Below, one piece after another: positions 2-29,985 of a stretch of 29,985 bases of DNA; position 1 is the stretch's first letter; each line of letters opens with the position of its first letter. This stretch comes from Candidatus Dormiibacterota bacterium (GTDB taxonomy: Bacteria; Chloroflexota; Dormibacteria; Aeolococcales; Aeolococcaceae). The DNA lies in the NCBI GenBank assembly GCA_027451645.1, contig DAIDIX010000002.1, forward strand, positions 1-29,985, written 5' to 3'. A program made the translations under genes and the position numbers. The notes beneath the pieces were generated by a model. It was not told the origin of the DNA. It searched no databases and worked only from the letters and a program-made list of their open reading frames with translations.

Positions 2-508
2 AAGACGACACCGACACCTCAGATACCAAAGCCGAGCTCTCATGTAGGTCCACTCGTAAATGCAACATACAGCAAAGCGTGCGGATCTGCGACAGTCCAG
101 ACTGGGGGGCCAACACCAACACCTGTGAGACTGAGTCCAGGACAGACTGTCCCGCCCTTCACTCAACCAACAGGACCAGTATCCGCTGCGGAAGCGACAT
201 CACTTGTGCATGAAATCCTCAATCAGCAAGCAAACATATCTGCAACGGGACTGATTCAGTGTCTTCCTCCCCAGGAAGTGGCAACGAGCGAGCTGAGCCA
301 GTTCCTGGCAGGTACGAAGAATCTTCCCAGCAGCGTTTGGGTTGTCATTATCCAAGGCAACTTCACAGTCTCGAATGTCTCTTCAAATGCCCCAAGTCAG
401 CCAACAAAATACATCGTGTACTTCATAAGCCCAGTACAGCCGATCCAGGTGTATTCATCCTTCATGTTCGCTTCTGGACCGCTTCCAAGTCCTCTGAACG
501 GACTGTAG
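2..508 (+). CDS. 5'-truncated hypothetical, probably exported, Pro/Thr-rich protein (C-terminal part)
   Basis: The frame of ORF 125..508 is open back to base 2 (KTTPTPQIPKPSS...GGPTPTPVRL), so the gene starts before the window. A PT-rich linker is followed by a globular end (VWVVIIQGNF...YIVYFI). Stop TAG at 506-508. Confidence 0.7.
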   Translation, partial: KTTPTPQIPKPSSHVGPLVNATYSKACGSATVQTGGPTPTPVRLSPGQTVPPFTQPTGPVSAAEATSLVHEILNQQANISATGLIQCLPPQEVATSELSQFLAGTKNLPSSVWVVIIQGNFTVSNVSSNAPSQPTKYIVYFISPVQPIQVYSSFMFASGPLPSPLNGL

Positions 509-1630: not shown

Positions 1631-2449
1631 GTGAGCAAAGCTAGACACCTTAGCAGATGTCGAACAAGAGCTCAGGTAATGCCGCTCTTTGCTTTGATGC
1701 TGCCAGTGATCATTGCGCTTCTTGGCTTGACCATGTCTGGCGAGATATACCTCAATGCACGGAGTCGTCTTGATGCAGCTACTGTTGTAGCTGCAATCGC
1801 TGCAAGCGGCGATGCGTGCATGGCTTCCCAGTACTCCTACGACGAGTATGAGTGTCAATATGGAACGTATCCAGGGACTGGAGGGTCGACGACCTCAATG
1901 TATGCTGCTGGACTTCCGCCTTATAGTGTTGGAATGGAATCTCCAAGCGGATCTGGCTTACTCACAACAACTCCATCGGCATCCCAAGTTACCGAAGAGC
2001 AGCAGCTGGCATCATACTCAGCTGACAGTTCCGTGCTCAACGTTCTTCAGCAGGCCTTTCCTGGCTATACGATCAATTCGGCTGCTGCACCAACAGTTGG
2101 CCAGCCGTGCCAGGGCACTGAGTCGGGGTCTGTACCCTATGCGCTCACTGCGTGCTCGAACTATGAACAGGGCTCTTCTCTTACAAACATTGAATTTCAG
2201 GTCAACGTGAGTTCAAGTTACATGCTGGATAGTGATGATTCATCCTCGGGTACATCAGATGATGCTTCTGGTGCAGATGGTGACGAATCTGGTGGTGCTC
2301 CATATGTGTGTCCAGCTACACAGCTGTTCGCACGTCAAGTCACTGTGAATGTGTGGATGCAGGCAACCCAGCCGTTTGGCGTATTCATCGGTGAATCACA
2401 GATTCTCATGCAGGCAACGCAGACAGCATATGGATGTCTTGGGAGCTGA
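1631..2449 (+). CDS. TadG-like (Tad domain) minor pilin, 6 Cys
   Basis: Class III-type N-terminus RA|QVMPLFALMLPVIIALLGL followed by ARSRLDAATVVAAIAAS, matching the Tad-domain helix (LQxAADAAALAAA). The GTG at 1631 has GGGAG 7 nt upstream (ORF track starts at 1580). C-terminal MQATQTAY strand is typical. Confidence 0.75.
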   Translation: MSKARHLSRCRTRAQVMPLFALMLPVIIALLGLTMSGEIYLNARSRLDAATVVAAIAASGDACMASQYSYDEYECQYGTYPGTGGSTTSMYAAGLPPYSVGMESPSGSGLLTTTPSASQVTEEQQLASYSADSSVLNVLQQAFPGYTINSAAAPTVGQPCQGTESGSVPYALTACSNYEQGSSLTNIEFQVNVSSSYMLDSDDSSSGTSDDASGADGDESGGAPYVCPATQLFARQVTVNVWMQATQPFGVFIGESQILMQATQTAYGCLGS

Positions 2450-2451
2450 GA

Positions 2452-3099
2452 ATGCAGATACTTCAACTGCCACATTCACCACGGACCCAATCTCGGCATC
2501 GCTCACGAGCGCAGTCAATGGTTGAGTTTACTTTCGTATTTCCCGTATTCATAGTTATCATCTTTGGCGGAGTGGTAGCTTTCCTGTGGCAACTCGATCT
2601 GAACAGTCTGAACTTTGCTGCACAGGAAGGTGTGCAGGTTGTAGGAATGCCCAGCAATGCCCTGGGTCTTGAATGCAGTGCTGGTCAGGTAGCGTACAAG
2701 GCAGCAGTATCCGAAAGCTTCTTGGGCACGACACCACTAGTCACAGGCAGTACTGGGGCACCCTGCACTGGCAGTGTTCCAAGCAGTCAACTCCCAGATC
2801 CACTCGCCTCCTGTCCTCCAGCAGAGCGTCCGAACAGTGGGCTAGGATACAGCGTAAGCACTCCACCAACGGAACAGCAAATGATGACGTATCTCAACCG
2901 TCTCATTACGTCTTCGACATCAAATGTACTTCTTGTGTGTGCGACAGCGAACACGAATGGCGGTGCAGCGACCTCTCCAGTTGTTCTCACGATAACAATT
3001 GCGGGGTACAAGCCACTTATTGCGCCAGCACCAATACTTGGCAACCGTCTGCCAGTGTATGCGCAGGATACATATACGATTCAGGAGTTTGAGCAATGA
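2452..3099 (+). CDS. TadE/TadF-family minor pilin, 4 Cys
   Basis: SRA|QSMVEFTFVFPVFIVIIFGG is a TadE prepilin motif with Glu at +5. ATG 2452 follows GGAG, 2 nt after the upstream stop. Confidence 0.8.
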   Translation: MQILQLPHSPRTQSRHRSRAQSMVEFTFVFPVFIVIIFGGVVAFLWQLDLNSLNFAAQEGVQVVGMPSNALGLECSAGQVAYKAAVSESFLGTTPLVTGSTGAPCTGSVPSSQLPDPLASCPPAERPNSGLGYSVSTPPTEQQMMTYLNRLITSSTSNVLLVCATANTNGGAATSPVVLTITIAGYKPLIAPAPILGNRLPVYAQDTYTIQEFEQ

Positions 3100-3689
3100 A
3101 GGGCTTCCGCGCATTGCGCAGACAGAGACGTAGCCATGCAACAGGCCAAACAATGGTTGAGTTTGCAGTGCTGCTTCCAGTGATGCTTACTGTCTTTCTT
3201 GGAGCCATCGCTATTGATTCATATATCCAGGCACAGAGCCTGCTGCAGCAGGCAACGACTGAATCAGCCTTGACGATTGCGCGCAACTCCAATGATTCAT
3301 GCTCGAACGGGGATATTGGATATTCCCAGGCAATCAGCTCATTCGATTCCGCGCTAAAGTCCCCACTCTTCAGTACTCTTCCATCACCGACTATCACCTG
3401 TGTGTCAGCTACTTCTCCACAGTCGAAATGCATAGTGACTACGGGAAGCAATTCTTGCACCAATGTTCCGGCCCTCTGCGTTGACGGTTACGGTGGAGCA
3501 GGAAGTGATGGGGGCTGCTTTGGGATCTGGAGGGGAGGTGTCGTTGGCGTGGATGCTCAGGCAAATGTCACCTTGCCATGGATTCCTCTATGGAACCATG
3601 CAACTGTACAGGCTACTGCTGCAGAAGCTCTTGAGCCATTCAGGAGCCATGTATGTCCGACATCAGCAGTTCCCATAGATTACTGCTGA
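3096..3689 (+). CDS. TadE/TadF-family minor pilin, 8 Cys
   Basis: TG|QTMVEFAVLLPVMLTVFLGAI...LLQQATTESA is a TadE motif with Glu+5. ATGA overlap with the upstream gene. C-terminal VTLPWIP...ATVQATAAEALEPFRS resembles TadE ends. Confidence 0.85.
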   Translation: MKGFRALRRQRRSHATGQTMVEFAVLLPVMLTVFLGAIAIDSYIQAQSLLQQATTESALTIARNSNDSCSNGDIGYSQAISSFDSALKSPLFSTLPSPTITCVSATSPQSKCIVTTGSNSCTNVPALCVDGYGGAGSDGGCFGIWRGGVVGVDAQANVTLPWIPLWNHATVQATAAEALEPFRSHVCPTSAVPIDYC

Positions 3690-3861
3690 ATTGAAGATGT
3701 GAGGAGCTGCCCGCTCTGGGAAGCGTGCAAACTAGCCCGTCACCAGAATGAAGTCTTCCGTCACTGCACTGTGACAGGTACGCCACTAAGCTGTGCACGA
3801 TGTTAACAATAATGAAAGGTATTGAAATGGCCTTCACATACGGTATTGGGGGTAACAACAG

Positions 3862-5850
3862 ATGACTCGATGGTATAGATGGAACCCCGAAGCACGGATG
3901 CATGTTGCTCGCATGACCGTACGGTGGGTCGTTGTAATGGGTGCGTTTGCACTAACTGCCCTTGCCAACTACCAAACTGTGGCAGCGAGCTCGCCTCCCC
4001 CAGTATCCACACTCAACTGCTATCTGGTAGGGCAGCAGCAATCGTGTCCATCTGCGAGCGATGCGACCCTTCAGGCTGCTCCAACGCCAGGTGTAGTGAA
4101 CTATCCAGAGCATTTCACAGCAACTGTGGATGCATGCGTTTACACTGAGCCTCCAGTCAATGGCAATAACCAGATTGCCCTCACAACGTGTACGAACCCT
4201 GGTGCAAATCCACCAACGAATGGAACAAATGCACTCATCAAGTGGATTCCGCAGACAGTGGTCGTGGAGTTTTACTACGGAAGCAACAATCCGGATCAGG
4301 TCTGCCAGTATGTCTCTACAAGTACTGCTGATCAGACCATCAATCTTCCATATGATCCCACGACAAGTCCAGCAAACGGTACCAAACAGCCATGTATCAA
4401 GTACACGTCTCTAGGATCCTACTCGGGAACGCCCCCAGTGTATACATTCACTTCAATCCACCAGTATGCCACTGCGAGCACGTATCAACCCGCAGTCGTA
4501 GTTGAGTGGAATGGAGCACAGCCATATACAACGTATGTTGCACAGACGTATTCCGTGCACTACGACTGCGGCAATCCAGCATCCGTTCTTGCAGGCAACC
4601 TTGTGAACTGCAACCAGTATCAAGCGCAGTATACTACCCAGCAGCCCCAGGGCTGGTGGGCAGGGAACACAAACGACCAGACCCAGTATTTCACGCAGTA
4701 CTATGTCGGAAACAGCTCTCAGGCATACACATCAGAGAATGTGTACGCTGCAGGATGGTTTCCTGCACTGAGCTCTGGACAGAGCACGTGGGCAGGATGC
4801 TGTGGCTATGACGGCTACTATGGATCTGCCTATGATGAGTTCAATGGCTGCAACAACGTTGGCGTGAGCTGGAACTGGGAAACCTGGGCTGGCACATATG
4901 TGTGGCCGGACTACAACTCCTGGTCAGGCTGCATAGGCATTGACAATGATGATGCATATACCACCGGATACTCCTCACTGACCCAGGCATATGGAGGTGG
5001 AGTCACCACATTCCCTAGTGGGATTTGGTATCCGTATCTCACAAGCTCCCCGGTAACCAGGTATGTCGACCAGCAGTACGTTGCATCCTACACAGCGAGC
5101 TATCACACTTCGCAGTACTACTGGCAGTTAGTGTACGAGTATGTGCCAGTGCAGAATGTGTATTACTACTACCAGATCAACACTGCACCGAACAACTCCG
5201 TCCAGACCACAACTGTAGTGGATACCTGCGCACAGGCAGGAGGATGTCAGTACAACTACAACGTTCCGCCACCATACTTTCAGTACTACACAATCAATGA
5301 CACGTTGAGCCAGCCTGTATTCCAGACGTCAAGCAGCTGGTCACAAGACCCGGCGTGGAAGACTGACTATACCCAGTGGCTAAGTTATGCAGTTGGGTCA
5401 TATACCGACTACTGGTACTCATACAACTGGGCATATCAGGCCTATCCCACAGGATGGAACAGCCGGTCAATCTACGCCTGCAGCTTCACTGGATGGACAA
5501 ACCTCGATCTTGATGGTGACAGTGACATGGGATATTCGTGGAACAACAACTGCTGGTACCAACAGCCCCTTGGATGGGAAAGCTATGCAGGCTATCCCGC
5601 GTACATCTTCGCAACACCTCACGGATATACCAACTACTATGGATACTGGAACGTCAACACCTGGTGGTACGGATATGTCGGCTGGAACTGGCAGCTCCAT
5701 TACTACACGACAGTCAGCTACACCAATGTCACATATCAGGAGCTCGATGGAGCATGGCATGACTGGCCATGGACAACTGTCTCAGTCTCATACAACGCAG
5801 TGAACCCTGTCACACTCCAGGTGAAGCAGATTGAGGGCAGCAAGTCCTAG
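3862..5850 (+). CDS. Large secreted Tyr/Trp/Cys-rich protein with an apparently split PKD/Ig-like domain; candidate pilus-associated adhesin
   Basis: Sec-type signal (RWVVVMGAFALTALA...VAA|SS). Manual count is about 78 Tyr, 34 Trp and 16 Cys in 662 aa, with very few Lys/Arg in the mature part. PKD-like motifs at aa 74-216 and a terminal strand VTLQVKQIEG. Confidence 0.8.
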   Translation: MTRWYRWNPEARMHVARMTVRWVVVMGAFALTALANYQTVAASSPPPVSTLNCYLVGQQQSCPSASDATLQAAPTPGVVNYPEHFTATVDACVYTEPPVNGNNQIALTTCTNPGANPPTNGTNALIKWIPQTVVVEFYYGSNNPDQVCQYVSTSTADQTINLPYDPTTSPANGTKQPCIKYTSLGSYSGTPPVYTFTSIHQYATASTYQPAVVVEWNGAQPYTTYVAQTYSVHYDCGNPASVLAGNLVNCNQYQAQYTTQQPQGWWAGNTNDQTQYFTQYYVGNSSQAYTSENVYAAGWFPALSSGQSTWAGCCGYDGYYGSAYDEFNGCNNVGVSWNWETWAGTYVWPDYNSWSGCIGIDNDDAYTTGYSSLTQAYGGGVTTFPSGIWYPYLTSSPVTRYVDQQYVASYTASYHTSQYYWQLVYEYVPVQNVYYYYQINTAPNNSVQTTTVVDTCAQAGGCQYNYNVPPPYFQYYTINDTLSQPVFQTSSSWSQDPAWKTDYTQWLSYAVGSYTDYWYSYNWAYQAYPTGWNSRSIYACSFTGWTNLDLDGDSDMGYSWNNNCWYQQPLGWESYAGYPAYIFATPHGYTNYYGYWNVNTWWYGYVGWNWQLHYYTTVSYTNVTYQELDGAWHDWPWTTVSVSYNAVNPVTLQVKQIEGSKS

Positions 5851-5913: not shown

Positions 5914-6039
5914 ACTATGGATGTATCCTGGGAAACTGTCACAAGGATGCGACTGCTACTGTGTATGCAGGAGCGAAATCCAGAGTATGATGACCATGAA
6001 AATGTGCAATGTACATTGTCCAGCCGGGCAGGAGGATTC

Positions 6040-7398
6040 ATGAAGTTCCCTCAAACAAGACACTTTGCCGTGGCAGCAGGAGTAGTGCTTGCAGCAGGAC
6101 TGCTTATGCAGGGCAGCGCGGTTCTTGCAGCCAGCTCGGGATGGACCAAATATGACCTGCCCAGGCCTTCAAGTGTTCCAGCTAGCTATGTATTCAGTGA
6201 AAATATTACCCGCATTGATTCTCTGCCTGGCAGTGGAGGAATCATAGTAGCAGGTTCAGCAGTTGGGCATGCCCCAAATGCGTCAGGCGGCCAGATATTG
6301 CCATTTGTCCAGATTGAATCCGGAGGCACTGTGCATGACATTTCGCCATCATTTCCTGGCACAAGCACAGTCGTAACATCTGTGAGTGGACTGGCACCGA
6401 ATGACATCTGGATTGTTGGCTCCTCCCAGCCAGGCAACAAGTACTCTGATGAGGTCCCATCGTACGCATTCGCAGACCACTGGAATGGAAGCAATTGGCA
6501 GCTTTCCGCGCTGCCCCAGGTGGCAAAAACTGTTCCTGGCTCACTGTACAGTGTTTCGGAGGATGCGCCAAATGATGTCTGGACAGTAGGATTCAGTGGA
6601 GCAAAGGGGGCTCCCACCAATTTCCTGTTCCATTGGAATGGTTCAGCATGGACAGCTCTCCAGGAGCCAACGGCCAACTCGTATCTGCAGGCTGTTCAGG
6701 CATTTAGTCCCCTAAACGTTGTATTCCTTGTGGGAAGCACAGTTCGCAAGGCGCCTGTCATGCAGGTGTGGAATGGGTCTTCCTTCATCAACAATGCGAT
6801 GCCTTTCCAGAATAGTGGAGCAATAGCAAGTCCAACATTTCTTTCAGGCAGTTCAGTCACAAACTTGTGGATTGCGGTGCAGGTCAACTCGCCAGCTGGA
6901 CAGCAGACTGGAATATATCACTGGAATGGCACAGGGTTTTCTGCTCTGCCAGATATGAAGTCCGTTTCAGGAGGAAACTTCTCAGTGACATCCGTTGGTG
7001 CTGTTGCGAGTGACAATCTGTGGGTGACTGGTGTTACTTCGACAGGAAGGCAGGGCAAGACGCTCATTCCTACTCCATTCATTGAGCATTTCAACGGATC
7101 ATCATGGTCTGTAGTGCAAATAACGCTCAATGGCAAGAAGACAAGTGGCGAGATTGCTGATGTGACACCTGTCAGCCAGGACACCGTTGCCTTTGCGGGA
7201 ATAACCACACCCGAGAATGGATTCATTCTTCTTCATTCGGGAACTACTGTGGCGCCACTTGATCTTGGGAAGACAGGTGCCTCAGGTTTTCCCCTGTGGC
7301 TTGTGGTGACGATTGTCGTGGTTGTTGTTCTTGCAGCAGGGGTGATAGTGACCGTAATGCAGAGACGAAAGGTAAAGAAGGGCCAGGCCAATGCGTAG
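6040..7398 (+). CDS. Secreted beta-propeller-like repeat protein (five (N/D)xWxVG...HWNGxxW repeats) with C-terminal membrane anchor
   Basis: GGAGG SD before ATG 6040 (ORF track start 5917 is upstream of it). Signal peptide MKFPQTRHFAVAAGVVLAAGLLMQGSAVLA. Repeats NDIWIVG..DHWNGSNW, NDVWTVG..FHWNGSAW, LNVVFLVG..QVWNGSSF, TNLWIAV..YHWNGTGF, DNLWVTG..EHFNGSSW. LGKTG, then a TM segment, then RRKVKK. Confidence 0.8.
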   Translation: MKFPQTRHFAVAAGVVLAAGLLMQGSAVLAASSGWTKYDLPRPSSVPASYVFSENITRIDSLPGSGGIIVAGSAVGHAPNASGGQILPFVQIESGGTVHDISPSFPGTSTVVTSVSGLAPNDIWIVGSSQPGNKYSDEVPSYAFADHWNGSNWQLSALPQVAKTVPGSLYSVSEDAPNDVWTVGFSGAKGAPTNFLFHWNGSAWTALQEPTANSYLQAVQAFSPLNVVFLVGSTVRKAPVMQVWNGSSFINNAMPFQNSGAIASPTFLSGSSVTNLWIAVQVNSPAGQQTGIYHWNGTGFSALPDMKSVSGGNFSVTSVGAVASDNLWVTGVTSTGRQGKTLIPTPFIEHFNGSSWSVVQITLNGKKTSGEIADVTPVSQDTVAFAGITTPENGFILLHSGTTVAPLDLGKTGASGFPLWLVVTIVVVVVLAAGVIVTVMQRRKVKKGQANA

Positions 7399-7978
7399 AC
7401 GCGCACTGTTTCTGTCAATGCTCAATGTATGCGCATTGGCGTGCATCGCAGCAGTTGTTGCTGCCTGTGGTAGTTCCTCAGCTCCTCAAGCTTCACCTGT
7501 GTACGTGAAGTATTCTGGGACGGGAATCGAACACACCATCAGCATTGCAGAGGGCGGCAATGGCAATGTTGCACATGTCAATGTCGACCTTGTCAACGTA
7601 GTGGATCCTATTGCAGGGAGTGTGGCGCCAAAGGGAGATAGAGCAATTGCCTTTGAGCTTGGGTTCACCTACAAGGGCATGTCTTCCTTCCAAGTGGGAT
7701 CTGATGCAACCATCACCCTCAATGCAGGCTTTGGTGCATCAGTGATGGACTCCGATGGTGTTCAGTATCTTCCAGCCTCGATCCAGCCATCTGCGACATA
7801 CCATGGTGTGAGTCCGTTTGTAACGGCACATACACTGCACACGGGAAATATACTGCCCCTAAACACGATGAAGCGTGGCCTTATCATCTTCTATGTGCCA
7901 GCAAATGCTGCAGTAGTGAGCCTCACATACCAGCCGATGAACATGACTTCGCAGCCACTTACGTGGAACTTCGGATAG
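7391..7978 (+). CDS. Lipoprotein, DUF4352-like Ig fold
   Basis: Lipobox VAA-C-GSSS. PKGDRAIAFEL and RGLIIFYVPANAAVVSLTYQP resemble DUF4352. Overlaps the upstream stop. Confidence 0.6.
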   Translation: MRRRALFLSMLNVCALACIAAVVAACGSSSAPQASPVYVKYSGTGIEHTISIAEGGNGNVAHVNVDLVNVVDPIAGSVAPKGDRAIAFELGFTYKGMSSFQVGSDATITLNAGFGASVMDSDGVQYLPASIQPSATYHGVSPFVTAHTLHTGNILPLNTMKRGLIIFYVPANAAVVSLTYQPMNMTSQPLTWNFG

Positions 7979-8793: not shown

Positions 8794-9336
8794 ATGAACC
8801 GTCGCAATCATAGGCACCAGCAGCCTGCAAAACACACTCCTACGGTGGTAGAGCCAAATCTCGACGCTGTGGGTGCCTCGCTCACTCCCCGTGCAAAAAC
8901 ACTCCTCCGCTGGCTTTTTGACCATCAGGGCGAGGATCGGCCGCTTACGGAATCCGGTCTTGCGAAAGAGGATGCAGAGCGTGCATTCTTCGAACTCAAT
9001 GATGCTGGACTTGTGAAGCTCGTTCCTGGTGCTGCTGCAGGAGTTGTTGTTCCTGATGCAGTCCGTTCTGCAATGGTTCCTGAGCGCTACCTTGTGAACA
9101 TGATTGGCGAGATGCCTGAGCAGTCTGAGGCAGCAGAAGCCTGGAAGACCGCAGCAGAGGCAATTGCTGCATATCGAGCGAAATGGAAGATCACGGATGC
9201 TTCCCATGCACTTGGTGGCGGAAGGGTCGTCATGCACGGTGCTGAGCAGCGGACTGATGCCATTGCAGCATGGGCGACAATCCATGAGTTCCGACGCATC
9301 AAGGCTGCTCAGGCTCCATCCCAGGAGATTTCCTGA
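8794..9336 (+). CDS. Hypothetical protein: winged-helix-like N-half plus segment resembling the C-terminal tail of actinobacterial MobF relaxases
   Basis: GAGGAGG SD. LTPRAKTLLRWL...FFELNDAGLV is wHTH-like. YLVNMIGEMP...AWKTAAEAIAAYRAKWKITDASHALG...QR resembles the relaxase tail as recalled. Confidence 0.65.
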   Translation: MNRRNHRHQQPAKHTPTVVEPNLDAVGASLTPRAKTLLRWLFDHQGEDRPLTESGLAKEDAERAFFELNDAGLVKLVPGAAAGVVVPDAVRSAMVPERYLVNMIGEMPEQSEAAEAWKTAAEAIAAYRAKWKITDASHALGGGRVVMHGAEQRTDAIAAWATIHEFRRIKAAQAPSQEIS

Positions 9337-9341
9337 ACTCC

Positions 9342-9575
9342 ATGCAGGACACGGAAGTGGACGAGTACCCGACGTGGGTGCAGCATGCACTCGACTGTGG
9401 ACTCATTACATCCCTGGAAGCACGACGGTTCATCGGGCAGGCTCTTCCTCTCACGCATGGCTCCCCTCTCCAGCTCATTGGCCGAGGACGGCGTGGTCAT
9501 GTGACCTGCAGATGCCGCTTCACTCTTGCACACTCGTGCACAAAGCTTCCAGCCCCAGTGCGATTCACGATGTAG
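9342..9575 (+). CDS. Small hypothetical protein
   Basis: Starts 5 nt after the upstream stop. The N-half (YPTWVQHALDCGLITSLEARRF) looks protein-like. No recognised family. Confidence 0.35.
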   Translation: MQDTEVDEYPTWVQHALDCGLITSLEARRFIGQALPLTHGSPLQLIGRGRRGHVTCRCRFTLAHSCTKLPAPVRFTM

Positions 9576-9588: not shown

Positions 9589-9695
9589 GCAGTAGCGCAC
9601 GTTCAGCGCATCGGAGTCGGAAGCTCCCGCACTTCGAATGTCGGATCGTATCAGTCGATGTGTCACATCGAGCGTTGAGTGGGATAGAGGCCTGT

Positions 9696-22920: not shown

Positions 22921-23234
22921 ATGAATGCGGAACTGCTCAAGGGCCATCTCGATGGCCTCATCCTTTCCATACTCGCCAGGTCTCCAAGCCATGGCTATGC
23001 TGTGCTTGCTGAAGTGAAACGGCTGTCCGAGGCAATCTTCGACCTTCCTGAGGGGACAATCTATCCGGCACTCCATCGGCTCGAGCATGCAGGACTTGTA
23101 TCGAGTGAGTGGAGTGCTGGTGTGCCACACAGAAGGCGGTATATTCACTCACCCGGGAGGGAAAGCAGCGGCTTGAGCGGAGCAGGAAGGACTGGAAGCA
23201 GTTTCAGTCTGCAGTGGAGGCATTCTACGCATGA
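22921..23234 (+). pseudogene. PadR-family regulator with an apparent 1-nt deletion at about 23139 (pseudogene or sequencing error)
   Basis: LLKGHLDGLILSIL..HGY..EGTIYPALHRLE is the PadR wHTH. After RRR the canonical tail YSLTREGKQRLERSRKDWKQFQSAVEAFYA* lies in the -1 frame and stops at TGA 23232-34, overlapping the next ATG. Confidence 0.85.
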
Positions 23235-24121
23235 TTGACGAACTGGACACTGCACTGCGCGCACGGGGTGTGGGATGGCGTGCACGCTCACGGATCTGTG
23301 CTGAGTTCCAGGACCATCTGATGTCAGATCCGCACGCACAGTTGGGATCGCCCGAGGAGCTTGCAGCAGAGTTTGCAGAAGTGCTCGGAACGTCGCATGT
23401 GCGTACTGCAGTCATTGGCGGATGGGCAGCACTCGTTTGTGCAGCACTAACCTATGCTGCATTCGTCATTGGCATGATTCCCCACTCGCCTGGCAAGCTC
23501 CAGCAGGGAGTGCTTGCAAGCAAGCCCTTCCTTGTCCTGGGGAAGAGTGGACTGGCAGGAATGGCAGCAAGTGTTCTTCTTGTCCTGCTCCCGCAGATTG
23601 CGTTTGCATCAGGACTCCTCAGCATTCTTCACGCTATCCGTTCCCGTACGCGCTCCACGATCTCGGGAAGGGACCAGGTGATCATCAGGCGCCGCATGGC
23701 GATAGCCCTTGCAGCTGCAGCAGGAAGCATTGGAAGCTGTATTGCAGCTGGAATTCTAGTCGCGGGACGGCCATTTGGACTGAGTGCTGTACTTCCTGCT
23801 GTCACGATTCTCATGATTCTTGGTGCCTCACTCCTACTTTTCCGTGCTGCCCGGTACCGGTATCCTGGTGAGACGCTGCATTCAACGCTTGTTGATGATG
23901 TGTGCTGGATTGTACCAACGAGACTGCGGCCGAATGGCACGACTCTTTCAGGTCTTGTTGCAGTTTGGGCTGGTGTGATTGTTTCTCTCGGTGGTGCAGT
24001 TGCTGGAGATCCATATGATGGAGCACTCCGCAGTGTGGTGGAAGCGGCGTGCTGCTACAGCGGATACATGCTCCTTGGCAGGTACCTTGGCATCCGGAGC
24101 TCAACTGAAGAAGTTTCGTAG
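23231..24121 (+). CDS. Multi-pass membrane protein with N-terminal HAAS/permease-prefix-like domain
   Basis: IDELDTALR...RSRICAEFQDHL...LGSPEELAAEF followed by several hydrophobic segments. This is the usual partner gene of this PadR subtype. Confidence 0.7.
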   Translation: MIDELDTALRARGVGWRARSRICAEFQDHLMSDPHAQLGSPEELAAEFAEVLGTSHVRTAVIGGWAALVCAALTYAAFVIGMIPHSPGKLQQGVLASKPFLVLGKSGLAGMAASVLLVLLPQIAFASGLLSILHAIRSRTRSTISGRDQVIIRRRMAIALAAAAGSIGSCIAAGILVAGRPFGLSAVLPAVTILMILGASLLLFRAARYRYPGETLHSTLVDDVCWIVPTRLRPNGTTLSGLVAVWAGVIVSLGGAVAGDPYDGALRSVVEAACCYSGYMLLGRYLGIRSSTEEVS

Positions 24122-25491: not shown

Positions 25492-26268
25492 ATGGCGCAA
25501 GATGCTACGACCAAGTGGACTCCACCAGAGCACACTGGTCTTGCCAAGGAAAGTGCTTTCCAGCGTCTGAGACGGCGTGCACCATGGTGGCTCCTGCCAC
25601 TGACTGTGGTGACAGTTCTCTCAGCATTCATCGTGTATGGCATGTGGACTGCGTTCTTTGGAGGCAAGGTCTACAGTGCACCCTACCTTTCGCCGTTCTA
25701 TTCGCCGCAGATCTGGTGGAATGGTCCAGTGACACCAGCTCTCTGGGTGCTTCCTTTCCCGCTCCTCTTCCGGGCAACGTGCTACTACTACCGGAAGGCG
25801 TATTACCGGTCCTTCTTCTGGGACCCTCCGGCATGCGCAGTCGGGGAAGCGAGGAAAAAGCCGTACAAGGGTGAGACGAGGTTCCCACTCTTTCTCAGCA
25901 ATCTGCACAGGTATGCGATGTACCTTGCTGTCATTGTTCTCATCTTCCTGTGGATTGATGCTGTTGCTGCCTTCGACCTCAATGGGCATTTCTATTTCGG
26001 CCTTGGCACAGCAATCATGGTCATCAACTGCATCTTCCTCTCCGCATACACGTTCGGCTGCCACTCTGTACGGCATCTCGTTGGTGGATGTGTTGACTGC
26101 TACTCGCGCGTTCGGGGTGGGGCAAAGCGGTATGAAGGCTGGAAATTCATTACAAGGCTCAATGAGCACCATGCAATGTGGGCATGGCTCAGCCTCTTCA
26201 GTGTCGTAGCAACAGATGTCTACATCCGGCTCGTGATGACAGGCATCATCATTGATCCTCACTTTTAG
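25492..26268 (+). CDS. sdhC: Succinate dehydrogenase membrane anchor, actinobacterial Sdh1 (Rv0249c-like) type
   Basis: YLSPFYSP, FRATCYYYRKAYYRSFF..PPACAV, GETRFPL...HRY, YTFGCHS.RH..GG, LNEHH..WAW.SL, DVYIR. First gene of the sdhA/sdhB operon. Confidence 0.85.
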   Translation: MAQDATTKWTPPEHTGLAKESAFQRLRRRAPWWLLPLTVVTVLSAFIVYGMWTAFFGGKVYSAPYLSPFYSPQIWWNGPVTPALWVLPFPLLFRATCYYYRKAYYRSFFWDPPACAVGEARKKPYKGETRFPLFLSNLHRYAMYLAVIVLIFLWIDAVAAFDLNGHFYFGLGTAIMVINCIFLSAYTFGCHSVRHLVGGCVDCYSRVRGGAKRYEGWKFITRLNEHHAMWAWLSLFSVVATDVYIRLVMTGIIIDPHF

Positions 26269-28880: not shown

Positions 28881-28919
28881 AAAAAAAGAGGAGAGGTTCC
28901 TTGCGGGACCTCTCCTCTT
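28881..28919 (-). terminator. Intrinsic terminator between convergent sdhB and mdh (U-tract on the mdh strand)
   Basis: AAGAGGAGAGGTTCC-TTGC-GGGACCTCTCCTCTT 15-bp stem (one G-U), preceded by an A7 run that is a U-tract on the minus strand. Confidence 0.85.
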
Positions 28920-28942
28920 CGTATTTCCAGTTTGACTTTCTG

Positions 28943-29935
28943 CTAGGCGAGAAGTGCTGCAGGTGTGAGTTCCCGGATGCCAAGTTCCTGCACGCTCTGA
29001 TCCACTACAGTAAGCAGGTCCCGTACAGCTTCCGCGGACTTGTGGAGTGCTGCAGTCTCATCGGAGTTGAGTTCAACCGGGAAGACCCGCTCAAGTCCTC
29101 TGGAACTCAGCTGGCAGGGCACACCTGTGAACACGCCATGGATGCCATATTCTCCCTCAAGGTAGACACTCACAGGAAGAACAGCATGGCTATCGAGAAC
29201 GATGGCATCAACCATCTGGCTTACTGCTGCACTTGGTGCATAGTACGCACTTCCGGACTTCAGGAGGCCAACGATTTCCGCTCCACCATCGCGGGTGCGC
29301 TGGACGATAGATGCAAGACGGTCCTTGCTGATGAGATCCTCAACGCAGACACCACCAACAGTCGTAAGGCGGGTGAGTGGCACCATGGTGTCACCATGGC
29401 CACCGATGACATATGCCTGGATGTCATTGCGGGAGACCTTGAGCTCCTCAGCGATGAAGGTGCGGAAGCGTGCAGTATCGAGGATCCCTGCCATGCCGAT
29501 GACGCGTTCCCGTGGGAAGCCGCTTGCTGCCATTGCAACATGCGCCATTGCATCAAGCGGATTGCTTACAACAACGAAAATGGATTTTGGGGAGTGCTTA
29601 GCAGCATTCCGGGCAACAGAGGCGACAATCTTTGCATTCGTCTGGACGAGATCATCCCTGGACATTCCCGGCTTCCGTGGCATGCCACTCGTAATGACGA
29701 CGATATCGGAGTTGGCTGTCGGTTCCCAGCCCGAGTCATCGGTGACAGTCACACCAGTGAGTGTGGAATCGAAGCCGACAACAGGACCAGCTTCTGCAAG
29801 ATCCAGGGCCTTGCCCTGGGGCATGCCTTCGATGACATCGACAAGAACAATGTCTGCGTAGTTCCGTTCTGCAAGACGGAGCGCAGTCGTTGCGCCCACA
29901 TTGCCTGCACCGATGACTGTGATCTTCATTCTCAT
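28943..29935 (-). CDS. mdh: Malate dehydrogenase (LDH-like)
   Basis: [71 protein letters not shown]. Confidence 0.96.
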
Positions 29936-29985
29936 GGTGAGTACCTCAATGAGACGGACATGAAAGGGGTGATTTCTCTTCGATT

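Follow-up and report, generated by a model that had tools for sequence, protein, structure and literature searches.

A Tad-type minor-pilin trio and an aromatic-rich secreted protein in a Dormibacterium: probable distal operon of a split, secretin-less Tad/Flp locus

Candidatus Dormibacteria are abundant in cold, nutrient-poor soils; they are uncultured, and little is known of their surface biology. Here we describe a 29,985-nucleotide (nt) stretch of DNA from one such bacterium (assembly GCA_027451645.1), referred to throughout as the window, with a focus on three consecutive pilin-like genes (tad1, tad2 and tad3) and on the gene that follows them, big662, which encodes a large secreted protein rich in aromatic residues. 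The window is the entire contig DAIDIX010000002.1 (C2) of a metagenome-assembled genome (MAG; G000) that comprises 380 contigs and is 84% complete. The pilin-like genes and big662 belong to a module that is cut by the edge of the contig and contains the following genes, with protein lengths given in amino acids (aa).

2 to 508, plus strand: lipoA, the C-terminal 168 aa of a lipoprotein of ~205 aa, the 5′ end being lost at the contig edge
601 to 1467, plus strand: lipoB, a fast-evolving 288-aa lipoprotein with lipobox IAAC
1631 to 2449, plus strand: tad1, a 272-aa pilin-like protein that lacks Glu5 and occupies the TadG position, with 6 Cys in the mature form
2434 to 3099, plus strand: tad2, a TadE/TadF-type minor pilin with Glu5 and 4 Cys; the true start may be 2452
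3096 to 3689, plus strand: tad3, a TadE/TadF-type minor pilin with Glu5 and 8 Cys
3862 to 5850, plus strand: big662, a 662-aa acidic protein secreted via Sec, with 16 Cys and 17% Tyr plus Trp
5917 to 7398, plus strand: propeller-like protein of 493 aa with WNGS.W repeats, a signal peptide and a C-terminal membrane anchor; the real start is probably 6040
7391 to 7978, plus strand: lipoprotein of 195 aa with lipobox VAAC, the final conserved gene of the module

The three pilin-like genes are closely packed on the plus strand. A 4-nt overlap (ATGA) joins the reading frames of tad2 and tad3 and suggests that their translation is coupled; between tad1 and tad2 there is either a 16-nt overlap or a direct junction, according to which tad2 start is used. 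A previous reading of the window made from its letters alone (the sequence-only reading) had described three tightly coupled genes with prepilin-like N-termini and 6, 4 and 8 Cys residues, and our analysis bore out each of these points. Specifically, the predicted N-termini, with the junction marked by a slash, are RA/QVMPLF for tad1, RA/QSMVEF for tad2 and TG/QTMVEF for tad3, and R[GA]/Q is the usual prepilin junction across the genus. The leaders of tad2 and tad3 are of class III type: position −1 is a small residue and position +5 is Glu. In tad1, position +5 is Leu. In terms of family assignment, tad2 (29.2 bits) and tad3 (36.8 bits) exceed the Pfam gathering cut-off of 22.9 bits for PF07811 (TadE), and tad1 falls under it (16.9 bits), as do its orthologues (16.3–17.9 bits). 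The tad1 protein also has no match at E ≤ 1 to PF13400, the TadG-like 'Tad' domain (cut-off 22.3 bits), which is matched at 30.6 and 24.9 bits by canonical TadG-like proteins of the same genome that are 433 to >451 aa long. The TadG-like proteins of other minor-pilin sets are far longer than the 272 aa of tad1.

Despite these sub-threshold scores, the N-terminus of tad1 (RAQV.PLFALMLPV) is clearly homologous to those of tad2 and tad3, and its sequence RAQVMPLFALMLPV is invariant in the orthologues and in a paralogue found in a second copy of the module in the congener G006 (locus L019 on contig C22). This paralogue (L019, 11610–12725) carries an insertion of ~100 aa between the conserved blocks that is highly enriched in Tyr, Trp, Phe and Pro, a composition like that of big662. 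Comparison of the window genes with their G006 orthologues gave ratios of nonsynonymous to synonymous divergence (dN/dS) of ~0.04 for tad1, ~0.03 for tad2 and ~0.05 for tad3, values that are approximate because dS is saturated and that indicate strong purifying selection. Wider homologue searches with tad1 and lipoA yielded, between them, only proteins of the same genus and one weak N-terminal match. Taken together, the sequence comparisons identify tad1–tad3 as Tad-type minor pilins, as the sequence-only reading had proposed, with tad2 and tad3 of the TadE/TadF type and tad1 a short, Glu5-less member of the trio.

The protein encoded after the trio was likewise described correctly as Tyr/Trp-rich. 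It contains 78 Tyr and 34 Trp residues and only 13 Lys plus Arg, carries a Sec-type signal peptide, and has a predicted isoelectric point of ~4.05 in its mature form. Homologues are few, with 2 matches in 5.8 × 10⁹ proteins and 4 at E ≤ 1e-3 in 1.84 × 10⁹ cluster representatives. All three genomes of the genus encode the protein, whereas it was absent from the 148 other genomes of the order that were searched, and its full-length orthologues are 86% and 51–54% identical to it. With a dN/dS of ~0.06, which is indicative of purifying selection, big662 is, on sequence grounds, a real and constrained gene.

Neither sequence nor structure searches connected big662 to a described family. It has no match in Pfam, NCBIfam or the Protein Data Bank (PDB). 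A Pfam search with nine members of the big662 family returned nothing at E ≤ 1 save one match at chance level, and no PilY1/PilC propeller domain; a family profile gave 0 matches at E ≤ 10 among PDB sequences; and no usable look-alike of the whole protein, or of residues 45–240, was found in the ESM Atlas. A candidate PKD/Ig assignment found no support in the sequence tools (Pfam on all nine members). AlphaFold2 produced no usable fold, with a mean predicted local distance difference test (pLDDT) score of 29.6 without an alignment and 32.5 with a nine-row alignment, and the models show a weak beta-strand signal in residues 68–234 only. Self-BLAST revealed no second alignment that would indicate an internal duplication. 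Within the family alignment, the N-terminal region is the better conserved (CP, P.P..V.YPE.F, QPC, H.Y...Y.P and W.G..PYT), and a D.DGD.D motif is also present. The C-terminus is conserved as well (L.V.Q.EP), the final ~10 residues being among the best-conserved positions of the family.

The window encodes no Flp pilin, ATPase, TadB/C, CpaB or prepilin peptidase, as the sequence-only reading had reported. The same reading took the trio to be an orphan, stand-alone set, and this part of it gave way on comparison with related genomes. The only close homologue of big662 among 5.8 billion proteins (P0002, 51% identity) is encoded on contigs of up to 127 kilobases (kb). The gene order there is tadB, tadC, a 71-aa Flp-type pilin, four opposite-strand genes, cpaB, two lipoproteins, three TadE-like genes, a 668-aa protein, a 474-aa protein and a 194-aa lipoprotein, after which the locus continues into topA-rpsB-tsf exactly as the window does. 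The four inverted genes are a 144-aa gene, a formyltransferase-like gene, HhH-GPD and a 158-aa gene, and the cpaB in this locus is of the SAF plus RcpC type. The second congener, G006, whose big protein is 86% identical to that of the window, has the same contiguous order, with another cpaB just upstream of tadB. The conserved locus, as represented by G006 and the GCA_021803465.1 lineage, is accordingly cpaB1-tadB-tadC-flp, four inverted genes, and cpaB2-lipoA-lipoB-trio-big-propeller-lipoprotein, and the gene order from tadB to topA matches across the loci L001/L002 and L015. Upstream of the trio, flp lies at a distance of ~6 kb and tadB at ~8 kb, and a dedicated cpaB precedes it by two genes. 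The cpaB2 of G006 passes TIGR03177 at 78.3 bits. The Flp match is under the Pfam cut-off (19.5 versus 32.2 bits), yet the G/xxxxEY motif is present.

The upstream half of this locus is also found in the genome of the window. Contig C16, when reversed, carries nuo genes, resB, cpaB1, tadB, tadC, flp, the 144-aa gene, the formyltransferase-like gene and HhH-GPD. It stops within HhH-GPD, and C2 starts within lipoA, the lipoprotein that follows cpaB2 in the relatives, such that ~1.6–1.9 kb, cpaB2 included, are unassembled between the two contigs. The trio looks isolated because C2 begins 1.6 kb upstream of it, and its 'orphan' status is, as judged from this synteny, an assembly artefact. Flp, TadB/TadC and CpaB are encoded alongside the minor pilins in the congeners, and in the window's own genome only via the joining of C16 to C2 by synteny. 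The context evidence as a whole is drawn from two genera and about four species that are not independent of each other. As a separate observation on C16, the formyltransferase-like gene (locus L007, 847–1868) matches its L001 orthologue in two frames (residues 1–294 and 309–351), which suggests a frameshift or assembly error near 1730. A practical lesson of this case is that 'orphan' calls made 1–2 kb from a contig end need to be checked against relatives.

The remaining components of a Tad system are unusually dispersed over the genome. Neither C16 nor, in G006, the 13 kb that precede cpaB1 contain a T2SSE-type (CpaF/TadA) ATPase gene; such genes were located on different contigs (C146, C94, C54 and others). 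The A24 prepilin peptidase is encoded once per genome, amid housekeeping genes on C149. No secretin (PF00263; RcpA/CpaC) was found in any of three genomes that are 84–92% complete, which fits a monoderm-type system, with the proviso that absence from MAGs is not proof. The expectation of the sequence-only reading that the machinery is encoded elsewhere therefore holds for the ATPase and the prepilin peptidase and fails for tadB, tadC, flp and cpaB, which belong to the same split locus; the presence of machinery immediately upstream, which that reading had named as evidence against its proposal, is realized in part, the congeners having tadB, tadC, flp and cpaB there but no ATPase or peptidase gene. 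Across the loci L007 (G000 contig C16), L026 (C24), L027 (C123), L030 (C54), L037 and L038, none of the three tadB-tadC pairs has a CpaF/TadA ATPase gene next to it, and two have a cpaB just upstream. The ATPase genes stand alone except on C54, where the gene follows a cpaB-like gene and a 235-aa gene without a Pfam match, the latter of which may be a TadZ analogue.

Minor-pilin sets outnumber the platform genes in this lineage. The G006 genome has three tadBC pairs, four cpaB genes and at least six TadE-type sets (on its contigs C2 at 22 kb, C2 at 69 kb, C22, C38, C19 and C20). Two of these sets hold canonical TadG-like proteins of 428–496 aa, the G000 counterparts of which match PF13400, and four of the six have no Tad platform genes among the nearby open reading frames (ORFs) that were read. 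Because there are at least six minor-pilin sets to three TadBC pairs and one peptidase, alternative tips are plausible for the lineage. The ~2-Mb genomes of the genus each carry at least six separate sets of TadE/TadF(/TadG)-type genes, among them those at L033, L034, L035, L036 and L019 in G006 and on contigs C121, C72, C27 and C170 in G000, and one set adjoins a ribosomal-protein/secY/adk cluster.

The surplus of minor-pilin sets, four of them with no platform genes among the nearby ORFs read, bears on the proposal that the trio is a stand-alone, swappable tip cassette that has no machinery of its own, plugs into a remote Tad apparatus and displays big662. This proposal also draws on the lack of an ATPase or peptidase in or near the locus and on a precedent in Myxococcus (PMC12075869). 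Against it, exactly this set shares a locus with tadB, tadC, flp and two cpaB genes; its isolation is only apparent and arises from the contig end at window position 1; and no flanking repeats or recombination signals are present. The 'stand-alone' element is largely refuted by synteny, and we regard such a cassette as very unlikely. Swappable tips in general stay plausible for the lineage, but the set described here is embedded in a platform locus.

With respect to whether big662 is linked to the pilins, the order trio-big-propeller-lipoprotein is kept in three species between which synonymous divergence is saturated. The second module in G006 (L019 on C22) contains genes for a big-like protein (769 aa), a lipoA-like protein, a Glu5-less pilin (371 aa) and two TadE-type pilins, together with a convergent propeller/transmembrane gene, a lipoprotein and cpaB. 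These are the same parts as in the window module, arranged in a different order. A further case was observed in the genus g16 (G062), where tadB-tadC-cpaB-lipoprotein lies 6–10 kb from a lipoprotein gene and tad2-like and tad3-like genes, with a tad1-like gene in convergent orientation. The tad2-like and tad3-like genes are followed there by a gene for a 623-aa secreted protein with 14% Tyr plus Trp and 12 Cys, which aligns with big662 at the invariant P.P...YPE and the C-terminal V.Q positions. With a profile that includes the G062 protein, the family is found in 2 of the 22 genera sampled, and from its sequences big662 represents a lineage-specific orphan family, seen in two Dormibacteria genera. 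Three observations are new here: the orphan aromatic-rich family itself, the duplication of its gene together with a full accessory module, and its reappearance next to minor pilins in a second genus.

In view of these comparisons, we consider it probable that the module makes up the distal operon of a Tad/Flp (type IVc) pilus locus, one that is split and secretin-less, with big662 kept as a likely surface partner of the pilus. In such a system, tad1–tad3 would probably form a disulfide-stabilized complex that primes assembly of the Flp filament and caps it, by analogy to TadE/F/G, CpaJ/K/L and KilL/M/N. From what is known of the family, the filament itself would be built by the TadBC platform with the ATPase and prepilin peptidase encoded elsewhere. 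The second CpaB suggests that the module supplies its own alignment ring. To judge by its gene neighborhood, big662 would most likely be an adhesive partner that works with the pilus at the cell surface; lipoA and the membrane-anchored propeller protein could retain it at the pilus tip, close to it, or on the envelope.

Several observations weigh against this interpretation. At the level of the locus, cpaB2 and the C16–C2 junction are inferred and not assembled in the window's own genome, and tad1 lies under the thresholds of both the TadE and the TadG profiles. The homology of the G062 protein to big662 is weak (hhalign probability 34%). Big-like genes also occur without Tad genes found nearby, at L017 (propeller only), L018 (lipoA) and L021 (lipoA), where absence at L021 and L017 was judged by Pfam annotation, tblastn or N-terminal reading and the upstream flank of L021 is unassembled; the occurrence of big homologues away from TadE/TadG genes, which the sequence-only reading had named as evidence against its proposal, is in this sense partly realized. 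Gaps of ~170 and 70–190 nt flank big662, and co-transcription with the trio is not established for this reason. The propeller family is multi-copy in the genome (for example on G000 contigs C27, C155, C98 and C117) and mostly unlinked to Tad genes. Finally, structure and interaction predictions gave no evidence of contact between big662 and the pilins: a complex prediction for mature tad1, tad2 and tad3 with residues 603–662 of big662 scored 0.00, a result that is 'no answer' and speaks neither for nor against contact, with pLDDT values of 22–26 for the partner and ~58–60 for the pilins.

Several of the same observations are the basis of the main rival explanation, in which the neighborhood is coincidental. 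Here big662, the propeller/transmembrane protein and the lipoproteins would form a fast-evolving envelope island, and big662 would belong to the wall or the surface, perhaps as a carbohydrate-binding or surface-layer component, with an independent role in the envelope and no role in the pilus, its family being merely prone to such islands. Beyond the three paralogous loci without nearby Tad genes, the intergenic gaps on either side of big662 and the wide distribution of the propeller family, this explanation can point to the fact that the most constant neighbor of big is not a pilin. Across five locus types, big is accompanied by lipoA in four, by pilins in two and by a nearby propeller gene in two, with a propeller gene 7 kb away in a third. 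A coincidental neighborhood is less easily reconciled with the duplication of the full set, cpaB and three pilins included, in G006 C22, with the recurrence of pilin-big adjacency in a second genus at ~20% identity, or with the stability of the order over three species at saturated synonymous divergence. On balance we view coincidence as rather unlikely, though it is the alternative that we take most seriously. The association of big662 with the pilins, as read from these loci, is real but not obligatory, and a pilus-linked role for the protein is a substantial possibility that falls somewhat short of an even chance.

Two further explanations accept a functional connection between big662 and the trio and differ in what they take it to be. 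In the first, the locus would encode a split TadG: the large variable head, which in other Tad systems is the C-terminal domain of TadG/KilN, would have become a separate protein, big662, that docks in trans via its conserved C-terminal strand on the shortened tad1, with lipoA, the propeller protein and the dedicated CpaB as co-evolving helpers. Type IVc pili would in that case have a detachable tip adhesin resembling PilY1. Three features suggest this idea, namely the small size of the Glu5-less pilin, the large non-pilin protein encoded after the trio, and the conservation of the extreme C-terminus of that protein. The L019 paralogue of big662 runs ~28 residues past the C-terminal motif and is an ill fit to a strictly terminal strand, and we consider a split TadG unlikely. 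In the second, a short Tad pseudopilus capped by tad1–tad3 would push big662 through the wall in the manner of type II secretion, big662 being the cargo. The combination of a Glu5-less, cap-type member with two Glu5 members and a CpaB ring of its own is consistent with such a device, as is the presence of a gene for a large Sec-dependent secreted protein alongside. In contrast, a bona fide Flp pilin is encoded in the same locus, and neither a secretin nor an outer-membrane conduit was found in the three genomes. We also know of no precedent for Tad-dependent protein secretion of this pseudopilus-cargo kind, and secretion appears highly improbable.

All genes of the module are under purifying selection. 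The sequence-only reading had taken the flanking genes for lipoproteins, which is correct for two of them and incorrect for the 493-aa gene downstream, whose product is propeller-like with a C-terminal membrane anchor. LipoA is 63–86% identical to the lipoprotein that follows cpaB2 in L001 and L015 and has no match in Pfam or NCBIfam; in L018, L019 and L021, too, a lipoA homologue comes after the big-like gene. LipoB is 49% identical to its G006 orthologue and 28% to that of L001, and matches the NCBIfam SCO4651 lipoprotein family only weakly (23.8 bits versus a cut-off of 65). The only Pfam signal in the propeller-like protein is a weak match to the Rax2 beta-propeller (22.5 bits versus a cut-off of 28.8), and paralogues of it follow big-like genes in L017 and occur in the L019 module. 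The 195-aa lipoprotein at the end of the module is 74% identical in G006 and 35% identical in L001, in the same position, and lacks a match in Pfam or NCBIfam.

Outside the module, housekeeping genes fill the window from position 9660 (topA, rpsB, tsf, pyrH, frr, uppS, cdsA, dxr, rseP, ispG and others). Just upstream of topA are ORFs of 180 aa (8794–9336) and 77 aa (9342–9572) that have no Pfam match and are 79% and 90% identical, respectively, to their counterparts in the congener locus L001. Three sizeable ORFs in the housekeeping region are without a match in Pfam at E ≤ 0.01 (23231–24121, 296 aa; 25492–26268, 258 aa; and 28901–29983, >361 aa). Minus-strand ORFs within 1631–5850 were rejected as genes, being short and nested in conserved plus-strand genes. 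A promoter and terminator scan of the stretch gave fewer sites than in shuffled sequence, none of them informative. The repeat scan found no direct or inverted repeats flanking a cassette, and the sole meaningful repeat was the QxMVEF-coding segment common to tad2 and tad3.

In terms of known systems, the trio is most readily compared to TadE/TadF/TadG of Aggregatibacter and CpaJ/CpaK/CpaL of Caulobacter. It shares with these the PF07811-type N-terminus, Glu5 in two members with a third that lacks it, and a location downstream of tadB, tadC and flp, with cpaB. It differs in that tad1 is under the PF13400 and PF07811 thresholds and has no large C-terminal domain. The locus differs as well, since it is split by inverted housekeeping genes, contains no ATPase, TadZ, peptidase or secretin genes, and has a second cpaB and two lipoproteins.

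A closer parallel to the multiplicity of minor-pilin sets is the Kil (Tad-like) pilus of Myxococcus xanthus, which has four KilLMN 'Tips' that are disulfide-rich and interchangeable (Herrou et al. 2025, PMC12075869). As with KilL/KilM/KilN, the Dormibacteria genomes contain TadE/F/G-type trios rich in predicted disulfides, in several paralogous sets per genome, some of them distant from the machinery, and a single Flp-type filament could be capped by different distal surfaces, as proposed for Kil (PMC12075869). Unlike the Kil proteins, in which the variable distal domain resides within the large KilN/TadG, the window pairs a 272-aa Glu5-less member with a separate 662-aa non-pilin protein. The window set is also located inside a platform-gene locus, and its host is a secretin-less member of the Dormibacteria and not a diderm predator. 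Lastly, the KilLMN type is characterized by a confidently predicted heterotrimer in which the large N-type pilin exposes a distal domain. The window set includes no large pilin, and its three pilins, co-folded as the background for the partner prediction, had pLDDT values of ~58–60. Dormibacteria thus keep an elaborate, scattered Tad system, with three platform pairs, at least six minor-pilin sets, one peptidase and no secretin found, and the 'adaptable tip' idea extends through them to a secretin-less lineage.

For big662 the pertinent comparison is with the PilC/PilY1 adhesins of type IVa pili. In these, docking relies on the last ~10 residues, which are given as a beta-strand to the PilK-type pilin that lacks Glu5 (Ellison et al. 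2026, PMC13533445); Tad systems are reported to supply the docking strand in cis from TadG/CpaL (PMC13533445). Like PilC/PilY1, big662 is a large secreted non-pilin protein encoded beside minor pilins, and its C-terminal L.V.Q motif is conserved. Unlike them, it has no similarity in sequence or domains and no PilY1 propeller match, and its L019 paralogue extends ~28 residues past the motif. Judged from sequence and gene order, the trio and its locus represent a variant of the known Tad minor-pilin system, in which a pilus role for big662 is plausible but unproven. Should big662 not be a tip partner, the stretch would be an ordinary accessory operon with one more lineage-specific surface protein. 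If it does act in trans at the tip, it would be the first such partner known to us for type IVc pili, and would link these pili mechanistically to the strand-addition model of PilY1/PilC.

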